A stretch of DNA of 64,000 nucleotides from sequence record OL964735.1; one strand, 5' to 3'. Below are positions 9,327-38,009 of the stretch, piece by piece; position 1 is the stretch's first letter, and every line of letters starts with the position of its first letter. The notes beneath the pieces were generated by a model. It worked only from the letters and a program-made list of their open reading frames with translations. It did not search any database and had not been told where the DNA came from. The translations under genes were made by a program, and so were the position numbers. The DNA comes from Escherichia phage T4.

Positions 9327-10597
9327 TGGTGCTTAACCCTATGCATGATTTCTTTATTTTTACCGAGATTAAATCCGCGTTCGTTCGGATTTCCCAAATA
9401 ACCACATGTTCTTCTTATGGTATTCATCTTTTTAGGATCAGTTTCTCCACAAATAGAACAAACAAATCCGTTTTCAGTAGGAGTCATTTCATGGGTACTT
9501 CCACATGTAAAACATTTATCTACTGGCATATTAACACCAAAATAATCTAAATGCTGTGCAGCATAATCCCACACGGCCTCAAGACCTTTTAAGTTATTTT
9601 TCATATCAGGAAGTTCAACATAAGAAATGTGACCACCTGTCGCAATGAAATGATATGGCGCTTCACGAGAAATCTTTTCAAACGGAGTAATATTTTCTTC
9701 TACTGAAACATGGAAACTGTTAGTGTACCAGCCTTTATCGGTAACATCTTTTACGCTTCCATATTTTTCTGTATCGAGTTTACAGAAGCGATAACACAGG
9801 TTTTCAGCAGGAGTCGAATATAAACTAAAAGCAAATCCGGTTCTTTCAGTCCACTGTTTAAGATGAGCATTCATTTTAGTTAAAATTTCTCGTCCAATAT
9901 CACGACCGACAAGAATATTCAATTCGTGAATACCAATGTATCCTAAAGACACTGAACTTCTACCGTTTTTAAATAACTCAATTATGTCGTCATCAGGTTT
10001 AAGACGAACCCCGAATGCACCTTCTTGGTAAAGAATAGGAGCAACAGTAGCTTTAACTCCTTTTAAGGAACTAATTCTACACATCAAAGCTTCAAAACAT
10101 AAATCCATTCGTTCATTAAATAGCTCAACAAATTTCTGTTCATTGAACTGTGTTCCAATATAAGAATCTAACGCGATGCGAGGAAGATTCAGTGTTACAA
10201 CACCAAGATTATTGCGTCCATCAAGAATTTCATTGCCAGTCGAATCTTTCCATACGCTCAAGAAACTACGGCAACCCATCGGAGAAACAGGAACAGATGA
10301 ACCAGTGATAGCTTTATTGTTCTTAGCTGAAATAATATCAGGATACATCCTTTTGCTTGCGCACTCTAGAGCAAGCTGTTTAATATCATAGTTCGGATCG
10401 TCTTTATAAAGATTAACACCTTCTTCAACGAACATAACAAGCTTAGGGAAAATAGGAGTTATCCCATCACGACCAAGACCTTTAATACGATTTTTCAGAA
10501 TTGCTTTCTGAATCATTCGTTCAGTCCAGTCAGTTCCCGTACCAAATGTAATTGTTACAAAAGGAGTCTGTCCGTTTGAACTGAATAACGTGTTCAC
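9323..10597 (-). CDS. nrdD: Anaerobic ribonucleotide reductase NrdD, exon 2 (exon extends a few codons upstream of 10597 to the 3' splice site)
   Basis: C-terminal glycyl-radical motif RRTCGYLG and zinc-ribbon CxxC...CxxC; track start is a GTG inside the exon; exon-1 plus exon-2 ORF pieces total 605 aa as T4 NrdD. Confidence 0.85.
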   Translation of the reverse strand: MNTLFSSNGQTPFVTITFGTGTDWTERMIQKAILKNRIKGLGRDGITPIFPKLVMFVEEGVNLYKDDPNYDIKQLALECASKRMYPDIISAKNNKAITGSSVPVSPMGCRSFLSVWKDSTGNEILDGRNNLGVVTLNLPRIALDSYIGTQFNEQKFVELFNERMDLCFEALMCRISSLKGVKATVAPILYQEGAFGVRLKPDDDIIELFKNGRSSVSLGYIGIHELNILVGRDIGREILTKMNAHLKQWTERTGFAFSLYSTPAENLCYRFCKLDTEKYGSVKDVTDKGWYTNSFHVSVEENITPFEKISREAPYHFIATGGHISYVELPDMKNNLKGLEAVWDYAAQHLDYFGVNMPVDKCFTCGSTHEMTPTENGFVCSICGETDPKKMNTIRRTCGYLGNPNERGFNLGKNKEIMHRVKHQ

Positions 10598-28707: not shown

Positions 28708-28931
28708 ATACTGGCTTCTTTGAGTTTCGTTTTAGCAATAGTTAACTGATCGAGACTTTCAGCATAATTCTTCGCGAATTCACAGTCTTCGCAATTATCT
28801 AGTGCTTCCCAGAATTCATCATATAAAGCATCAAAGATAAGTCCTAAACGAACTTCAGCGTCTTTAATAGCATTTACTTTACCGATTTTCTCTTCAGTAT
28901 GTGGTTTATAACCCTTAATATCTTCAATCAT
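28665..28931 (-). CDS. Small acidic protein at vs.4 position; candidate Acb2-type cyclic-nucleotide sponge
   Basis: Track ORF 28665..28967 starts at TTG; ATG at 28931 gives 88 aa ([14 protein letters not shown]...); assigned by gene order and size, not sequence-verified. Confidence 0.4.
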
Positions 28932-29145
28932 ATTTGACTTCCTCACCAGTACATAAATCGTATTCAACTAAACGAATAGGTTCATGAATGCCATAGCCTT
29001 GAACAGAAATTTCTGTCGTAGGATAAATTCCATCAATATCACCCATATTCCACGCTTCATTAAATTGCTGTTCGCCTGAGTTACTAAACCACTCGGCGAA
29101 AGCATTTAGCACATCTTCAGAACCTTCAATAATTATCTTTGCCAT
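28924..29145 (-). CDS. hypothetical small acidic protein (vs.5 position)
   Basis: ORF track. Confidence 0.4.
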   Translation of the reverse strand: MAKIIIEGSEDVLNAFAEWFSNSGEQQFNEAWNMGDIDGIYPTTEISVQGYGIHEPIRLVEYDLCTGEEVKYD

Positions 29146-29507
29146 TACAAACTTTCAGTAAAGGTACGAGCGATAACGTCGCGCTGCTGTTCCGGAGTCA
29201 GAGAGTTAAAGCGAACTGCATAACCGGATACACGGATGGTCAGCTGCGGATATTTTTCCGGATGCTTAACTGCATCTTCCAGAGTTTCACGACGCAGAAC
29301 GTTAACGTTCAGGTGTTGACCACCTTCAATTTTAACTGTAGGTTGTGGCTCAATTTCAATTTCACGGGCATGCAAACCATAGAAAATTTCTGGGTCTACA
29401 AAAGAGTCCTCTTTAAAGGTTTTAGAGACAATAATTCGTGCTTGAATACCATCTTCAAAATAAATAGTACCTTTATGTGTGCCTTCAAGAATTTGATATG
29501 CTTTCAT
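29145..29507 (-). CDS. GrcA/YfiD-like glycyl-radical cofactor protein
   Basis: 120 aa; C-terminal [59 protein letters not shown] has the glycyl-radical fingerprint RVSGY; the 3' half of the gene (about 29150-29350) is GC-rich with enterobacterial codon usage. Confidence 0.75.
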
Positions 29508-29514
29508 ATAAACC

Positions 29515-29844
29515 TCAATTAGAAAATAAATTTATCCAAGATTGTTCTTTAATTAAAAATGGCTCAGAATCATATGCCATTAAACTTTGCGTAATTAATC
29601 CTTTAAAAGGTCCATCAATAAATTCCATGGTAAAATATGGAATTTTATTCATTAGCCGTGCATTAGGAGCAGTGCACAAAACTCTGCATCCTTTGAATAC
29701 GCCTTTTTGTAATTTGTATTGCTTGGGATAAAATTCGCTCAAAATGTTATTTTTTGCCAAAATTTCAAAATGATTCACCAATTTATTTTTAATAGTTTTT
29801 GGCGAAAAATAAAGATATTCGAAAAGCTGAGTGTCTGTCATCAT
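29515..29844 (-). CDS. hypothetical protein (vs.7 position)
   Basis: ORF track 29515..29895; internal ATG ([10 protein letters not shown]) preferred. Confidence 0.35.
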
Positions 29845-36176: not shown

Positions 36177-36305
36177 AGTTTTGTGAAAAAATTTTTAAAA
36201 AGTTTTAGGGAATTCTAGGGCGGAGAGGGGCAATTAAAAGATAGGATAATATATTATAAAGGGTATAAACTAAATGATGCCTAGAGAGGTCTGGAAAGGC
36301 TTAGA

Positions 36306-36337
36306 TACCAAAAAGCCCCAACCTTTCGGTCGGGGCT
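36306..36337 (-). terminator. Intrinsic terminator closing the tRNA/stable-RNA transcription unit
   Basis: Minus-strand hairpin GCCCCGACC-GAAA-GGTTGGGGC followed by UUUUU. Confidence 0.6.
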
Positions 36338-36387
36338 AAGCCTTGCGGCAACCTTGTCGGGGTTCCACCTGCCAAGGCAAGTGTTTG

Positions 36388-36533
36388 TACGAAACGCCGG
36401 GATTCGAACCCGGTTATTAAGTAGTTGACGCTACTCAATATTTTTAAAAGGCCATATCTCAACCATATCCGAACGTTCCGTCAAAAACGCTACTCGGCTT
36501 ACGGCAAAGATATTTCCTCGAATCGATAATTTG
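36388..36533 (-). ncRNA. Small stable RNA with tRNA-like 3' domain (T4 species-1/2 RNA-like); boundaries approximate
   Basis: ORF-free, GC-richer segment with T-arm-like CCGGGTTCGAATCCCGG near 3' end; between tRNA-Arg and terminator. Confidence 0.35.
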
Positions 36534-36650
36534 GTGCGCCGTTTCTGCTGTGATGTAAGAGGGCATCAATAAACGCAAAGATTATTAACGCAATTCCTTA
36601 CTCAGGGAACATCAGTCCGACGACTTACCGGTAGCGACCCGGTTTCTCAT
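36534..36650 (-). ncRNA. Small stable RNA (T4 species-1/2 RNA-like); boundaries approximate
   Basis: ORF-free structured segment ending in GCGCACCA on the minus strand, immediately downstream of tRNA-Arg. Confidence 0.3.
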
Positions 36651-36651
36651 T

Positions 36652-36726
36652 TGGTATCCCGCCCTGGGATCGAACCAGGACCGCAAACTTAGAAGGATCG
36701 TATGCTATCCATTACACCAGCGGGAC
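36652..36726 (-). tRNA. tRNA-Arg (anticodon UCU), CCA encoded
   Basis: Minus-strand GTCCCGCTGGTGTAATGGATAGCATACGATCCTTCTAAGTTTGCGGTCCTGGTTCGATCCCAGGGCGGGATACCA; cloverleaf with T-arm CCTGG-TTCGATC-CCAGG. Confidence 0.8.
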
Positions 36727-36731
36727 GTAAT

Positions 36732-37397
36732 TTAAAATTTCATTTTTCGACCTTTAAACCATCCTTCTGGAATTGGGTCAGTTTTCTTAATACGTTTAGA
36801 AACTTTTTCATCTAATGAATGAATCCACATCATACCGAATTGGGAATTCTTTTCACCTTTCTGGTGATTATTTTTGGCGTGAGATTCTTTCATTTTATTA
36901 ATAGTTTCAGGAGTATGATGCTTATTTAGAAATCTGCTATTATTTAAAAATTTTTCCCTGTATTCAGGAGTTGACCACAAACGTTTAAATACATTTGAAC
37001 CAATTTTACGATATTTTTCTTGAAGTAAAATATCATTTTCAAAACGTGACTTAAACGATTTAGCTCCTTTTAAGCTAGCATCTTTCTTCTGGTTTAGCAT
37101 TCCAGGAATATTTACATGATCCCATCCACCTTCACCGCCAAGTTTTAAATTATACACATCTGGTCTATTTAAAAACTCTTCTGTGACAATATTTTTCTCG
37201 GCTTCAAGCATAGATTCTTTATCGTCAAAATACTCTAATATTTCTTTAGAAAAATTTTCTATACCATATTTATCTTGGGCTCTTTTTAATAATTTACCAG
37301 AACCCATATATCCATCATCTAAATTTTCGGTAGAATGCACACCAATATAAATTTTATTATTAATTTTATTTGTTATTTTATAAGTGTAATAGAACAT
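36732..37397 (-). CDS. segB: GIY-YIG homing endonuclease SegB, inside the tRNA cluster
   Basis: 221 aa; [34 protein letters not shown]...NLKLGGEGG. Confidence 0.8.
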   Translation of the reverse strand: MFYYTYKITNKINNKIYIGVHSTENLDDGYMGSGKLLKRAQDKYGIENFSKEILEYFDDKESMLEAEKNIVTEEFLNRPDVYNLKLGGEGGWDHVNIPGMLNQKKDASLKGAKSFKSRFENDILLQEKYRKIGSNVFKRLWSTPEYREKFLNNSRFLNKHHTPETINKMKESHAKNNHQKGEKNSQFGMMWIHSLDEKVSKRIKKTDPIPEGWFKGRKMKF

Positions 37398-37438
37398 AAA
37401 TATCTCCTATTTCTAAGAGTATTTATGTTCTCAAAATA

Positions 37439-37512
37439 TGACCCAGACCAGATTTGAACTGGTAACCTTTCCCTTATGAGGGGACTGCTGCTAACCATTG
37501 AGCTACAGGGCC
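37439..37512 (-). tRNA. tRNA-Ile (anticodon CAU, presumably lysidine-modified), CCA not encoded
   Basis: Minus-strand GGCCCTGTAGCTCAATGG...CTCATAA anticodon loop...ACCAGTTCAAATCTGGT; 1 nt from tRNA-Thr. Confidence 0.7.
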
Positions 37513-37513
37513 T

Positions 37514-37589
37514 TGGTGCTGATTGACGGAATCGAACCGCCGACATCCTCATTACAAGTGAGGTGCTCTACCTACTGAGCTAAATCAGC
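37514..37589 (-). tRNA. tRNA-Thr (anticodon UGU), CCA encoded
   Basis: Minus-strand GCTGATTTAGCTCAGTAGGTAGAGCACCTCACTTGTAATGAGGATGTCGGCGGTTCGATTCCGTCAATCAGCACCA. Confidence 0.85.
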
Positions 37590-37596
37590 AAAATTA

Positions 37597-37683
37597 CGGA
37601 GGCGATAGGATTTGAACCTATGAGTCGCCGGAGCGACTGCCGGTTTTCAAGACCGGTGCATTAAACCACTCTGCCACGCCTCC
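37597..37683 (-). tRNA. tRNA-Ser (anticodon UGA), long variable arm, CCA not encoded
   Basis: Minus-strand GGAGGCGTGGCAGAGTGG...CCGGT-CTTGAAA-ACCGG...GGTTCAAATCC...CGCCTCCG. Confidence 0.85.
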
Positions 37684-37685
37684 AG

Positions 37686-37759
37686 TCTCCATACAAGGAT
37701 TTGAACCTTGGACCTCCTGATCCCAAATCAGGCGCTCTACCAAACTGAGCTACACGGAG
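37686..37759 (-). tRNA. tRNA-Pro (anticodon UGG), CCA not encoded
   Basis: Minus-strand CTCCGTGTAGCTCAGTTTGGTAGAGCGCCTGATTTGGGATCAGGAGGTCCAAGGTTCAAATCCTTGTATGGAGA; 2 nt from tRNA-Ser. Confidence 0.8.
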
Positions 37760-37769
37760 TAAATTAAAT

Positions 37770-37843
<74 letters not shown>

Positions 37844-37848
37844 AAATT

Positions 37849-37935
37849 TGGTGCGAGAAGTGGGACTCGAACCCACAAGGAAATCATTCCGCAGCATTTT
37901 AAGTGCTGTGCCTTTACCAATTTGACCATTCTCGC
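37849..37935 (-). tRNA. tRNA-Leu (anticodon UAA), long variable arm, CCA encoded
   Basis: Minus-strand GCGAGAATGGTCAAATTGGTAAAGGCACAGCACTTAAAATGCTGCGG...GGGTTCGAGTCCCACTTCTCGCACCA. Confidence 0.85.
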
Positions 37936-37936
37936 G

Positions 37937-38009
37937 CTGGGAATAAAGGACTCGAACCTTTGCATCTAGCAGTCAAAGTGCTATGCCTTACCAACTTGGC
38001 TAATTCCCA
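37937..38009 (-). tRNA. tRNA-Gln (anticodon UUG), CCA not encoded
   Basis: Minus-strand TGGGAATTAGCCAAGTTGGTAAGGCATAGCACTTTGACTGCTAGATGCAAAGGTTCGAGTCCTTTATTCCCAG; 1 nt from tRNA-Leu. Confidence 0.8.

Follow-up and report, generated by a model that had tools for sequence, protein, structure and literature searches.

The radical-domain half of phage T4 vs.6 was very probably overwritten by Escherichia coli grcA DNA

Results

The vs.6 locus and its product

The window analysed here is a 64-kb stretch of the phage T4 genome, and an ORF scan of it places on the minus strand an ATG-started frame for a protein of 120 amino acids, T4 vs.6, also known as Y06I (Table 1). Several T4 records have exactly this sequence, while RefSeq NC_000866, where the gene is named "autonomous glycyl radical cofactor GrcA", departs from it by one nucleotide that replaces R73 by H. 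Neither the gene nor its biochemical function is thus new. The ribosome-binding site lies 6–9 nt 5′ of the start codon in AT-rich phage sequence, and sequence comparison found no similarity between the region upstream of vs.6 and the E. coli grcA leader, or between the region downstream of vs.6 and the sequence 3′ of the grcA stop codon. On the opposite (plus) strand, an antisense ORF of 127 amino acids spans 29139–29522; it is a putative by-product of the GC-rich tract described below.

Table 1. Features of the vs.6 locus, in window coordinates
Feature	Position	Strand	Basis or remark
T4 vs.6 (Y06I), 120 aa plus stop, phage-type GrcA/YfiD homologue	29145..29507	-	ORF, T4 records, RefSeq, PDB, phrog_1209
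Non-host 5′ part of vs.6	29330..29507	-	N-half comparisons, GC3 0.19
Host-identical tract, putatively from conversion; gene nt 179–356, codons 60 (partly) to 119 (partly)	29152..29329	-	Exact match, GC
Retained non-host 3′ tail; last two codons AGT TTG versus E. coli AGC CTG (synonymous)	29148..29151	-	Marks 3′ end of tract
RVSGYAV glycyl-radical loop, residues 92–98	29214..29234	-	Motif position, PflB/GrcA alignment, Pfam Gly_radical
Gly95, radical glycine, equivalent to YfiD Gly102 and PflB Gly734	29223–29225 (codon)	-	
TAATG stop/start overlap coupling vs.6 to downstream vs.5 (ORF 28924–29145)	29143..29147	-	Sequence
Shine-Dalgarno GAGG	29513..29516	-	Sequence read

The initial annotation of this DNA, made from the letters alone, had recognized a glycyl-radical protein of the GrcA/YfiD type, and the family searches agree. 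The last 59 residues of Vs.6 (62–120, from GGQHLNV to TFTESL) are identical at 59 of 59 positions to E. coli GrcA 69–127 and contain the RVSGYAV loop, while Pfam PF01228 (Gly_radical) matches residues 61–101 with 66.8 bits (gathering score 22.2). Residues 58–120 are collinear with PflB 697–759 (E = 5e–26) and stop at the same C-terminal end. Among solved structures the top match is GrcA, PDB 6OWR (E = 8.6e–42, GrcA 28–127 aligned); this NMR structure is available for a domain identical to that of Vs.6. The phage family phrog_1209 is matched end to end (E = 1.2e–62, residues 1–120 against profile positions 1–121 of 121). On the NCBIfam equivalog TIGR04365 (spare_glycyl) E. coli GrcA scores 233.9 bits and Vs.6 only 153.3 (E = 3.7e–45), matching profile positions 25–126 alone and falling under the cutoff of 170, so the divergence of its N-half keeps it from counting as a strict equivalog under the curated threshold. 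When this N-half was searched by itself, none of the NCBIfam models matched it.

A tract identical to host grcA

The longest exact match between the two genes is 178 of 178 nt (vs.6 nt 179–356 against E. coli grcA nt 200–377). Every one of the 5,426 complete E. coli genomes has this match, and the tract accounts for the greater part of the coding sequence of the structured glycyl-radical domain. Its edges are sharp, the flanks being unalignable to E. coli at the nucleotide level both 5′ of nt 179 and past the stop codon. Composition changes at the same place: GC content is 0.489 in the tract, 0.337 in the 5′ part of the gene and 0.350 in the whole window, and GC3 is 0.42 in the tract versus 0.19 in the 5′ half. 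Across the 64 kb only 0.44% of 178-nt windows reach the GC content of the tract, and the others that do so all fall within 36253–36729 and 37440–37806, a tRNA-gene region (ARAGORN finds tRNAs from 36652 on).

Codon usage separates protein conservation from DNA identity. T4 shares 57 of 59 codons with E. coli grcA, whereas phage homologues free of the tract share 30/59, 32/57, 23/54, 25/47 and 24/50. Against a null of about 50%, as in these homologues, the T4 value has P = 4e–15, and against a null of 70%, as between E. coli and Klebsiella grcA (40 of 57 codons, 88% identity), P = 2.5e–7. Since the relatives with about 50% shared codons encode near-identical protein, the 57 of 59 in T4 points to recent host-templated gene conversion. 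In a host panel made of E. coli and species with the LLDAVEH variant, the T4 tract was 98.9% identical to E. coli grcA and no more than 88% identical to that of any other host.

At the 3′ end the host match gives way to a short tail of phage type. The form GAG AGT CTA is present in GAP161, K41P2 and Mosigvirus and is considered ancestral; the states of the tail differ among Tequatrovirus genomes.

The initial annotation is partly supported by these results. The shift in GC and codon usage on which it drew is real, its suggestion that host DNA arrived recently in the 3′ half is borne out by the exact match and the shared codons, and the similarity to grcA and pflB that it proposed to look for was found. 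Residue-level identity, which it took as a sign of recent capture, is insufficient alone: the homologue of Cronobacter phage GAP161 has the same 59 of 59 residues with only 30 of 59 codons and 82% nucleotide identity to E. coli.

The N-half belongs to an older phage family

Over the N-halves alone, BLASTP aligns Vs.6 to GrcA with 15 of 41 residues identical (37%, E = 2e–6), and the 5′ half of vs.6 as a whole is about 50% identical to E. coli grcA in nucleotides and 33% in amino acids. The Vs.6 N-half carries a 13-residue signature common to T4-like and T5-like phage homologues. Homologues of grcA occur in 1,516 phage records, with T4-like, T5-like and jumbo phages among them, and the gene is conserved in six of six T4-like genomes (PMC1524935). 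Slopekvirus, Pseudotevenvirus, Karamvirus, Krischvirus and T5-like phages encode collinear 120-residue homologues with the same N-half, the same junction (..VK[IV]EGGQHLNV) and the same tail, and with phage-type codons throughout. Judged by these alignments, the N-half of vs.6 is the diverged N-half of an old and widespread phage grcA family (phrog_1209). The homology of the N-halves and the existence of a full-length family free of the tract therefore argue for replacement, by gene conversion, within a pre-existing phage grcA homologue. In Karamvirus-type homologues the radical domain differs by about 15% at the protein level, a divergence that is evidently tolerated, so a perfect match to the host is not obligatory.

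Distribution of the tract among phages

The E. coli tract is common to about 640 Tequatrovirus and Mosigvirus genomes, and an E. coli-type 5′ half was seen in none of the 752 phage records (0 cover at least 80% of grcA). Between the two genera there are 12 fixed differences in nt 1–178 and none in nt 179–359 (P about 0.003, synonymous sites). T4 and the Mosigvirus AV118 are 96.6% identical in the tract, 88–91% in the 5′ half and about 70% in downstream vs.5. By this pattern the tract is younger than the split of Tequatrovirus and Mosigvirus. At nt 354, 357, 358 and 360 T4 has A-T-T-G, OES_C-2 has G-C-C-G and Mosigvirus has G-T-C-A. The variants inside the AV118 tract were sought as alternative E. 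coli alleles and are absent from E. coli genomes, the best E. coli match being 95.7%.

A further 106 phage records are 95–99% identical to K. pneumoniae grcA; among the matches listed they are mainly Klebsiella phages, and the two retrieved are Jiaodavirus. The Jiaodavirus 3′ half has a GC content of 0.57, shares exact runs of 101–140 nt with grcA of K. pneumoniae ATCC 13883, and over its whole length is 93–94% identical to K. pneumoniae versus 84–85% to E. coli. It has the Klebsiella-specific LLDAVEH variant followed by the phage-type tail, and a host-type 5′ half is absent from the phage records matching K. pneumoniae grcA. The tract of the Klebsiella phages is unquestionably a separate, independent conversion event.

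Discussion

Our data show that vs.6 has two halves of different history. The ORF is T4 vs.6/Y06I, very probably a phage-encoded autonomous glycyl radical cofactor whose radical-domain half was overwritten from E. coli grcA, and a Klebsiella-phage lineage had the same half overwritten independently from K. pneumoniae grcA. An old phage grcA homologue with a diverged N-half would have received the present radical half only recently, through homologous recombination with E. coli grcA. The direction of transfer appears to be from host to phage, as the tract fits the host species of each lineage and the host genes are uniform along their length. We also consider it quite possible, though we hold this tentatively, that the radical-domain half has been re-templated repeatedly from host grcA, from E. 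coli into Tequatrovirus/Mosigvirus and from K. pneumoniae into Jiaodavirus. Conversion of this kind may be adaptive or a neutral by-product of homology.

Identity over a catalytic domain could in principle come from extreme purifying selection and shared codon bias alone, with no recent DNA transfer. The C-terminal 59 residues are indeed near-invariant across distant phages and hosts, GAP161 being an example, but in the very same homologues codon identity is only about 50% in spite of selection on the protein, and two hosts of the same codon bias share only 40 of 57, so that 57 of 59 in T4 is not accounted for at either null (P from 2.5e–7 to 4e–15). Neither selection nor codon bias predicts the low GC3 of the 5′ half or the Klebsiella-specific synonymous codons of the Klebsiella phages, and synonymous sites in grcA are not frozen, as the 88% identity between E. 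coli and Klebsiella indicates. We regard this explanation as extremely unlikely. An artefact of assembly or contamination, in which E. coli reads found their way into phage assemblies, deserves mention since host DNA occurs in phage preparations and the tract matches the host exactly. Its probability is negligible, however: the tract is in frame in about 640 independently sequenced genomes, the 1986 T4 record X04567 among them, individual phages have private substitutions inside it, and the tail is unlike the host. The initial annotation favoured a captured host segment fused to a phage N-terminus, here taken as a new chimera in which illegitimate recombination joined a host radical domain to an unrelated phage sequence. 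The host segment of that proposal stands, and the sharp junction with no nucleotide similarity beyond its ends would suit it, but the N-terminus is not unrelated, being itself homologous to the N-half of GrcA. Collinear homologues without the tract exist in several phage groups, and their divergence is far too deep for them to derive from a T4-type chimera; the phage-type tail kept in the last codons also speaks against a fusion, to which we give very little credence.

Harder to set aside is the reading that one T-even ancestor took up the E. coli tract a single time and that the tract then spread from phage to phage, with no repeated conversion by the host. T-even phages recombine readily in co-infection. 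The 5′ breakpoint is the same in all Tequatrovirus and Mosigvirus genomes, and the departures of AV118 from E. coli are private, occurring in no E. coli genome. On the other side, the edges of the island of T4–AV118 similarity coincide with the exact limits of host homology, which templating by the host predicts and exchange between phages does not. The 3′ endpoint and the state of the tail vary by lineage, and the Klebsiella-phage tract is an event of its own. For Tequatrovirus and Mosigvirus, recurrent conversion by the host is not fully separable from a single acquisition that spread over exactly the tract; we consider the latter rather unlikely.

As for function, YfiD and T4 Y06I are reported to restore the activity of O2-cleaved pyruvate formate-lyase (PFL) in vitro once PFL-AE has activated them (Wagner 2001, as cited in PMC8683613), so the rescue of PflB that the initial annotation had offered as one hypothesis is already in print for Y06I. 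YfiD and Y06I are the only validated spare-part proteins; YfiD 61–127 folds like PFL 693–759, and the disordered YfiD 1–60 helps binding to cleaved PFL and activation (PMC8683613). The phage N-half is homologous to this disordered N-half, and the same role in binding and activation is putative. Following the in vitro literature, host PflA, the radical-SAM activase of PFL, would place the radical on Gly95 of the RVSGYAV loop, the C-terminal domain (equivalent to GrcA 69–127) would replace the piece of PflB lost when O2 cleaves at Gly734, and production of acetyl-CoA and formate would be restored. As T4 shuts off host expression, the phage may bring its own spare part and so keep PFL running under microaerobic or anaerobic conditions such as the gut. 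PFL activity could then sustain ATP production during infection, and the formate may serve as reductant for formate-dependent class III ribonucleotide reductases, one of which (NrdD/NrdG) T4 encodes. One group of class III enzymes uses formate as overall reductant (PMC11226230). NrdD is encoded within the 64-kb window; a T5-like phage with a grcA homologue also encodes nrdD, outside the surrounding 40 kb and 27 kb upstream, and this co-occurrence rests on two examples. No in vivo phenotype of vs.6 was found in the literature searched.

A different partner had also been proposed, namely that Vs.6 is a spare part for phage NrdD activated by NrdG. NrdD is likewise an O2-cleavable glycyl radical enzyme, and its RRTCGYLG motif is present where it had been noticed, about 19.8 kb away (near 9415, minus strand); spare parts for other glycyl radical enzymes have been speculated upon (PMC8683613), and an early comparative paper proposed a role in nucleotide metabolism (PMC1524935). 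Yet BLASTP of Vs.6 against the last 70 residues of T4 NrdD returns no alignments at E ≤ 100. Vs.6 has the PflB-type loop RVSGYAV in place of RRTCGYLG and lacks the cysteine-rich stretch found ahead of the glycine in NrdD, and its domain is 100% GrcA and runs end to end with PflB 697–759. The rescue described in PMC8683613 is of PFL through PFL-AE. Rescue of NrdD is therefore highly improbable. The putative connection from Vs.6 through active PFL and formate to anaerobic NrdD is a physiological link that can be tested.

Vs.6 is the Y06I of Wagner et al. 2001 (BBRC 285:456; pmid 11444864); the gene is the same and the function, as summarized in PMC8683613, does not differ. E. coli GrcA (YfiD, 6OWR) has the same layout, an N-half of about 60 residues and a C-terminal glycyl-radical domain with the same radical loop, and PMC8683613 reports for it the same activity, rescue of PFL via PFL-AE. 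Unlike GrcA, Vs.6 is seven residues shorter, has an N-half only ~33–37% identical that lacks the NSFWLLD segment and bears the phage signature instead, and is expressed from phage signals in translational coupling to vs.5. With the C-terminal domain of PflB (693–759) it shares an identical core of 19 residues, but it stands alone without the catalytic barrel and would thus act only in complex with cleaved PflB. The short forms GrcA2 and GrcA3 (NF008341, NF038360; about 80 residues) have the radical domain in common with Vs.6, whose residues 60–120 score 93–107 bits, under their cutoffs; Vs.6 has in addition the full N-half that the short forms lack.

The closest precedent for the conversion in vs.6 is recombination in cyanophage psbA and other photosystem genes, where patchy GC content results from intragenic recombination between host and phage (Zeidner 2005 and Sullivan 2006, as cited in PMC3900582 and PMC3037559). 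There too a phage copy of a host metabolic gene contains host-like segments inside phage-like sequence, and vs.6 shows the same kind of mosaic, a host-like synonymous segment with sharp edges within a phage-type homologue. The tract in vs.6 is much sharper and younger (178 of 178 nt), occurs in T-even phages of enterobacteria, covers only the functional domain of a gene that is itself very small, and is found in two phage lineages, the tract of each resembling grcA of the respective host species.

Recurrent conversion of grcA, or a nucleotide mosaic in it, is undescribed in the literature searched, although early T4 papers may have noted the nucleotide identity. What the present analysis adds is the recent overwriting of the catalytic half of vs.6 by host DNA and the parallel event in Klebsiella phages. 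The often-quoted 100% identity between the Y06I and YfiD proteins would accordingly have two causes, strong purifying selection and recent replacement of the DNA. There is a practical warning as well: a 2026 paper on typing E. coli phages by qPCR chose grcA as its conserved marker of Straboviridae (PMC12845203), and primers placed in the 3′ half of the gene would match the E. coli chromosome exactly.

Our results make vs.6 a clean and datable case of homologous gene conversion from host to phage, and this in T4, which has been studied better than any other lytic phage. That Klebsiella phages show a parallel event suggests how, in general, phage-borne versions of host metabolic genes may be kept compatible with partner proteins of the host. 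If true, re-templating would amount to host tracking by gene conversion, holding the phage protein exactly matched to the PflB and PflA of its host, and would be direct sequence evidence that T-even phages, strictly lytic and degrading host DNA, exchange homologously with the host chromosome in nature.

Identity and neighbourhood of vs.6

The window is DNA of bacteriophage T4. The ORF (363 nt) matches several T4 genome records at 100% identity and RefSeq NC_000866 at 99.7%; RefSeq gives the vs.6 product the name "autonomous glycyl radical cofactor GrcA". The gene, that of T4 Y06I itself, was already known, as was the feature as a whole; its neighbours are those expected for T4 (denV, vs.8 and vs.7 upstream, vs.5, vs.4, vs.3 and regB downstream).

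Features of the vs.6 locus (window positions)
Feature	Position	Strand	Description
vs.6 ORF	29145–29507	minus	ATG start, 120 aa
Shine-Dalgarno sequence	6–9 nt 5′ of vs.6 ATG	minus	GAGG
vs.6 stop/vs.5 start overlap		minus	TAATG
RVSGYAV loop	residues 92–98	minus	radical glycine Gly95 at 29223–29225
E. coli grcA-identical tract	29152–29329	minus	vs.6 gene nt 179–356

All that the initial annotation described is there, although its interpretation proves only partly right. A GrcA/YfiD-type C-terminal domain with the RVSGY fingerprint is borne out: the last 59 residues of Vs.6 are identical to E. coli GrcA (59/59), and with the Pfam Gly_radical model Vs.6 reaches 66.8 bits (gathering score, 22.2). 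When Vs.6 was compared with GrcA and PflB, as had been suggested, both matched, GrcA first. The best solved structure is that of GrcA (6OWR, E = 8.6e-42) and the second that of PflB, whose residues 697–759 align to Vs.6 58–120; among cellular proteins, E. coli GrcA is the nearest relative. On the NCBIfam GrcA equivalog model Vs.6 reaches 153.3 bits (E. coli GrcA, 233.9), below the cutoff of 170 because the N-half has diverged.

Window position 29290 (nt 218 of the gene, within the tract) is G here, in several other T4 records and in E. coli but A in the RefSeq T4 record, so that residue 73 of the reference Vs.6 is His, not Arg (LRHETL versus LRRETL). The T4 records X04567 and AF158101 (99.7% identity) presumably carry the same A. 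It comes either from an error in old sequencing or from a mutation in a laboratory strain. In the window, vs.5 (28924–29145, minus strand) encodes a 73-aa product like that of other T-even phages; RefSeq T4 annotates only 58 aa because one C is missing about 50 nt into the gene (GCCGAG versus GCGAG), and this annotation is probably frameshifted. An antisense ORF of 127 aa (29139–29522, plus strand) covers all of vs.6 and is probably a by-product of coding on the GC-rich opposite strand.

A host-derived tract in an old phage gene

The suggested nucleotide comparison gave a clear result: nt 179–356 of vs.6 are identical to nt 200–377 of E. coli grcA (178/178), and the tract has a match in all of the 5,426 complete E. 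coli genomes. The aligned 185 nt differ only at synonymous sites of the two final codons (AGT TTG versus AGC CTG in E. coli), and no alignment between the two genes was found 5′ of nt 179 or 3′ of the stop codon. The shift in GC and codon usage that had been noticed by eye is also real, with GC of 0.489 in the tract versus 0.337 in the rest of vs.6 and 0.350 in the whole window, and GC3 of 0.42 versus 0.19 in the rest of the gene. Across the 64 kb, just 0.44% of windows of 178 nt are as GC-rich, and all the others fall in 36253–36729 and 37440–37806, a tRNA-gene region. Eight tRNA genes (Arg, Met, Thr, Ser, Pro, Gly, Leu, Gln; 36652–38009, minus strand) cover most of this span; a tRNA search found none under 36253–36651.

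Three results show vs.6 to be an old phage homologue of grcA and no new chimera. The N-halves of Vs.6 and GrcA are on their own 37% identical over 41 aa (E = 2e-6), the phage family phrog_1209 matches Vs.6 end to end (E = 1.2e-62), and tract-free homologues of the same length, for example in phages GAP161, K41P2 and CW742, have the ..VK[IV]EGGQHLNV.. junction, the GAG AGT CTA TAA tail and phage-type codons throughout. Homologues occur in 1,516 phage records, with many T4-like genera, T5-like phages and jumbo phages among them, and a comparative study lists vs.6 in 6/6 T4-like genomes (PMC1524935). Thus the initial annotation, in which a host segment was joined to an N-terminal part from the phage, holds for the 3′ half, which is host DNA, but not for the N-half, which is itself GrcA-homologous and belongs to an old phage family.

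The domain of Cronobacter phage GAP161 is identical to that of E. coli GrcA at the protein level (59/59), with 30/59 codons in common and 82% nucleotide identity, and four other phage homologues share from 23/54 to 32/57 codons with E. coli. These homologues point to very strong purifying selection on the domain, with synonymous sites diverging normally; identity of the protein by itself would be no evidence of recent transfer. The grcA genes of E. coli and K. pneumoniae share 40/57 codons (88% nucleotide identity), and T4 shares 57/59 with E. coli (P = 4e-15 for a null of 0.50, P = 2.5e-7 for a null of 0.70). Together with the sharp edges and the jump in GC3, this codon identity indicates that the 3′ half of vs.6 was recently replaced by E. 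coli DNA, in line with the recent arrival first proposed. The direction is from host to phage, since the composition of the tract is host-like, host grcA is uniform along its length and an E. coli-type 5′ half is found in none of the 752 matching phage records. The tract covers almost exactly the interval in which the similarity of the phage and host genes suffices for pairing, as is to be expected when fragments of host DNA meet the phage gene in homologous recombination or heteroduplex repair.

Within the phage/host alignment of the 3′ half, a 14-nt block, CGCGACGTTATCGC (codons R-D-V-I-A, gene nt ∼322–335), is the same, down to synonymous sites, in both hosts and in most of the T-even-type homologues compared, also in those whose surroundings are only 75–82% identical. 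The block may have served as an anchor for recombination, be a relic of older conversions or be due to chance.

Distribution of the tract among phages

At least 95% identity to E. coli grcA nt 200–384 is found in 638 phage records, named for Escherichia, Shigella, Yersinia and other hosts; those fetched belong to Tequatrovirus or Mosigvirus, and in those listed the match starts at nt 200. Among 13 sampled genes, the two genera differ by 12 fixed substitutions (six synonymous) in nt 1–178 and by none in nt 179–359 (P about 0.003), and tract variants, private to single phages or genus-limited, lie scattered about the sequence of E. coli. Between T4 and the Mosigvirus AV118, identity is 88–91% in the 5′ half of vs.6, 96.6% in the tract and about 70% in vs.5 directly downstream, and the last codons of the sampled genes show several combinations of phage-type and host-type states. 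From the fixed differences, the T4/AV118 pattern and the last-codon states, the tract is younger than the Tequatrovirus/Mosigvirus split, and it was either gained more than once or swapped between phages over exactly the host-homologous interval. The private variants of AV118 were matched in no E. coli genome and are therefore mutations later than the transfer.

A second tract was found in Klebsiella phages. In the fetched Jiaodavirus genomes (vB_VIPKPNUMC01, Nispero) and the IMG/VR locus L035, GC is 0.57 in the 3′ half and 0.36 upstream. The Jiaodavirus tract (gene nt 181 to about 338, ∼158 nt) has exact runs of 101–140 nt with K. pneumoniae ATCC 13883 grcA and the Klebsiella-specific L77/E81, followed by a phage-type tail; the loci compared were L004, L035 and L145 (Jiaodavirus phages) and L109 (K. 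pneumoniae ATCC 13883). Its 5′ breakpoint is in the same place as in T4. The 3′ half of K. pneumoniae grcA is matched at 95–99% by 106 phage records, of which none has a K. pneumoniae-type 5′ half. Judged from these alignments, the tract is unambiguously an independent second host-derived event. A host-like tract is absent from other lineages, among them Slopekvirus, Pseudotevenvirus, Karamvirus, Krischvirus, T5-like and jumbo phages (nucleotide identity to the tested hosts, 62–86%).

When bacterial genomes were scanned for the peptide variant ETLLDAVEHPEKYP, the matches were GrcA genes of Klebsiella, Raoultella, Kosakonia, Kluyvera and other genera, as well as PFL-type genes of Pasteurellaceae, Vibrio and others. 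Several short IMG/VR "viral" contigs (among L037 and L077–L085) carry bacterial-type genes in place of the phage family, one a full GrcA (MITGIQITKA N-terminus) and others PflB C-termini; such contigs could be pieces of host DNA or flanks of prophages.

Function and meaning

YfiD of E. coli and Y06I of T4 are described as ∼14-kDa spare-part proteins that restore O2-cleaved pyruvate formate-lyase (PFL), the radical being first put on the spare part by PFL activase (Wagner 2001, as cited in PMC8683613). They are still the only validated proteins of this kind (PMC8683613, JBC 2021). YfiD 61–127 has the fold of PFL 693–759, and its disordered residues 1–60 aid binding to cleaved PFL and activation (PMC8683613). 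The proposed rescue of PflB is thus, by that account, established biochemistry for exactly this protein: PflA is reported to make the radical on the RVSGYAV glycine of Y06I, and Y06I to complement O2-cleaved PflB. A copy of its own may serve the phage because host gene expression halts after infection, and the gain would be production of acetyl-CoA, ATP and formate kept up at low O2. In the domain that has to fit PflA and PflB, the phage protein does not differ from that of the host, owing to selection in general and, in T4, to the recent DNA replacement.

Rescue of NrdD fared differently. The gene, with RRTCGYLG near window position 9415, does lie ∼19.8 kb from vs.6, close to the 20 kb first given, but Vs.6 gave no BLASTP alignment whatever to the C-terminal 70 residues of T4 NrdD, and its RVSGYAV loop is of PflB type; a spare part for NrdD is therefore unsupported. 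An indirect link seems more plausible, in which formate from PFL would supply the reductant of class III ribonucleotide reductase. T4 NrdD is probably a member of the formate-dependent class III group. In such enzymes formate is the overall reductant (PMC11226230). The T5-like Salmonella phage SE11 (L148, 13354–15228) also encodes NrdD and a grcA homologue; T4 and SE11 are the only two examples in which this pairing was seen.

The evolutionary pattern most like the vs.6 mosaic is that of cyanophage psbA, whose patchy GC was put down to host–phage intragenic recombination (PMC3900582, PMC3037559). For grcA/vs.6 itself no description of a mosaic was found in the searchable literature, which did not cover its two likeliest sources, and what the recurrent, host-specific conversion tract adds is clean, if modest. 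For qPCR of E. coli phages, a 2026 typing study chose grcA as the conserved marker of Straboviridae (PMC12845203); since the 3′ half of grcA is identical to the E. coli chromosome, a primer pair located in it would amplify DNA of the host. The domain tolerates about 15% divergence in Karamvirus-type proteins, so an exact host match is not obligatory, and the conversion may be either adaptive matching to the host or a neutral by-product of homology.
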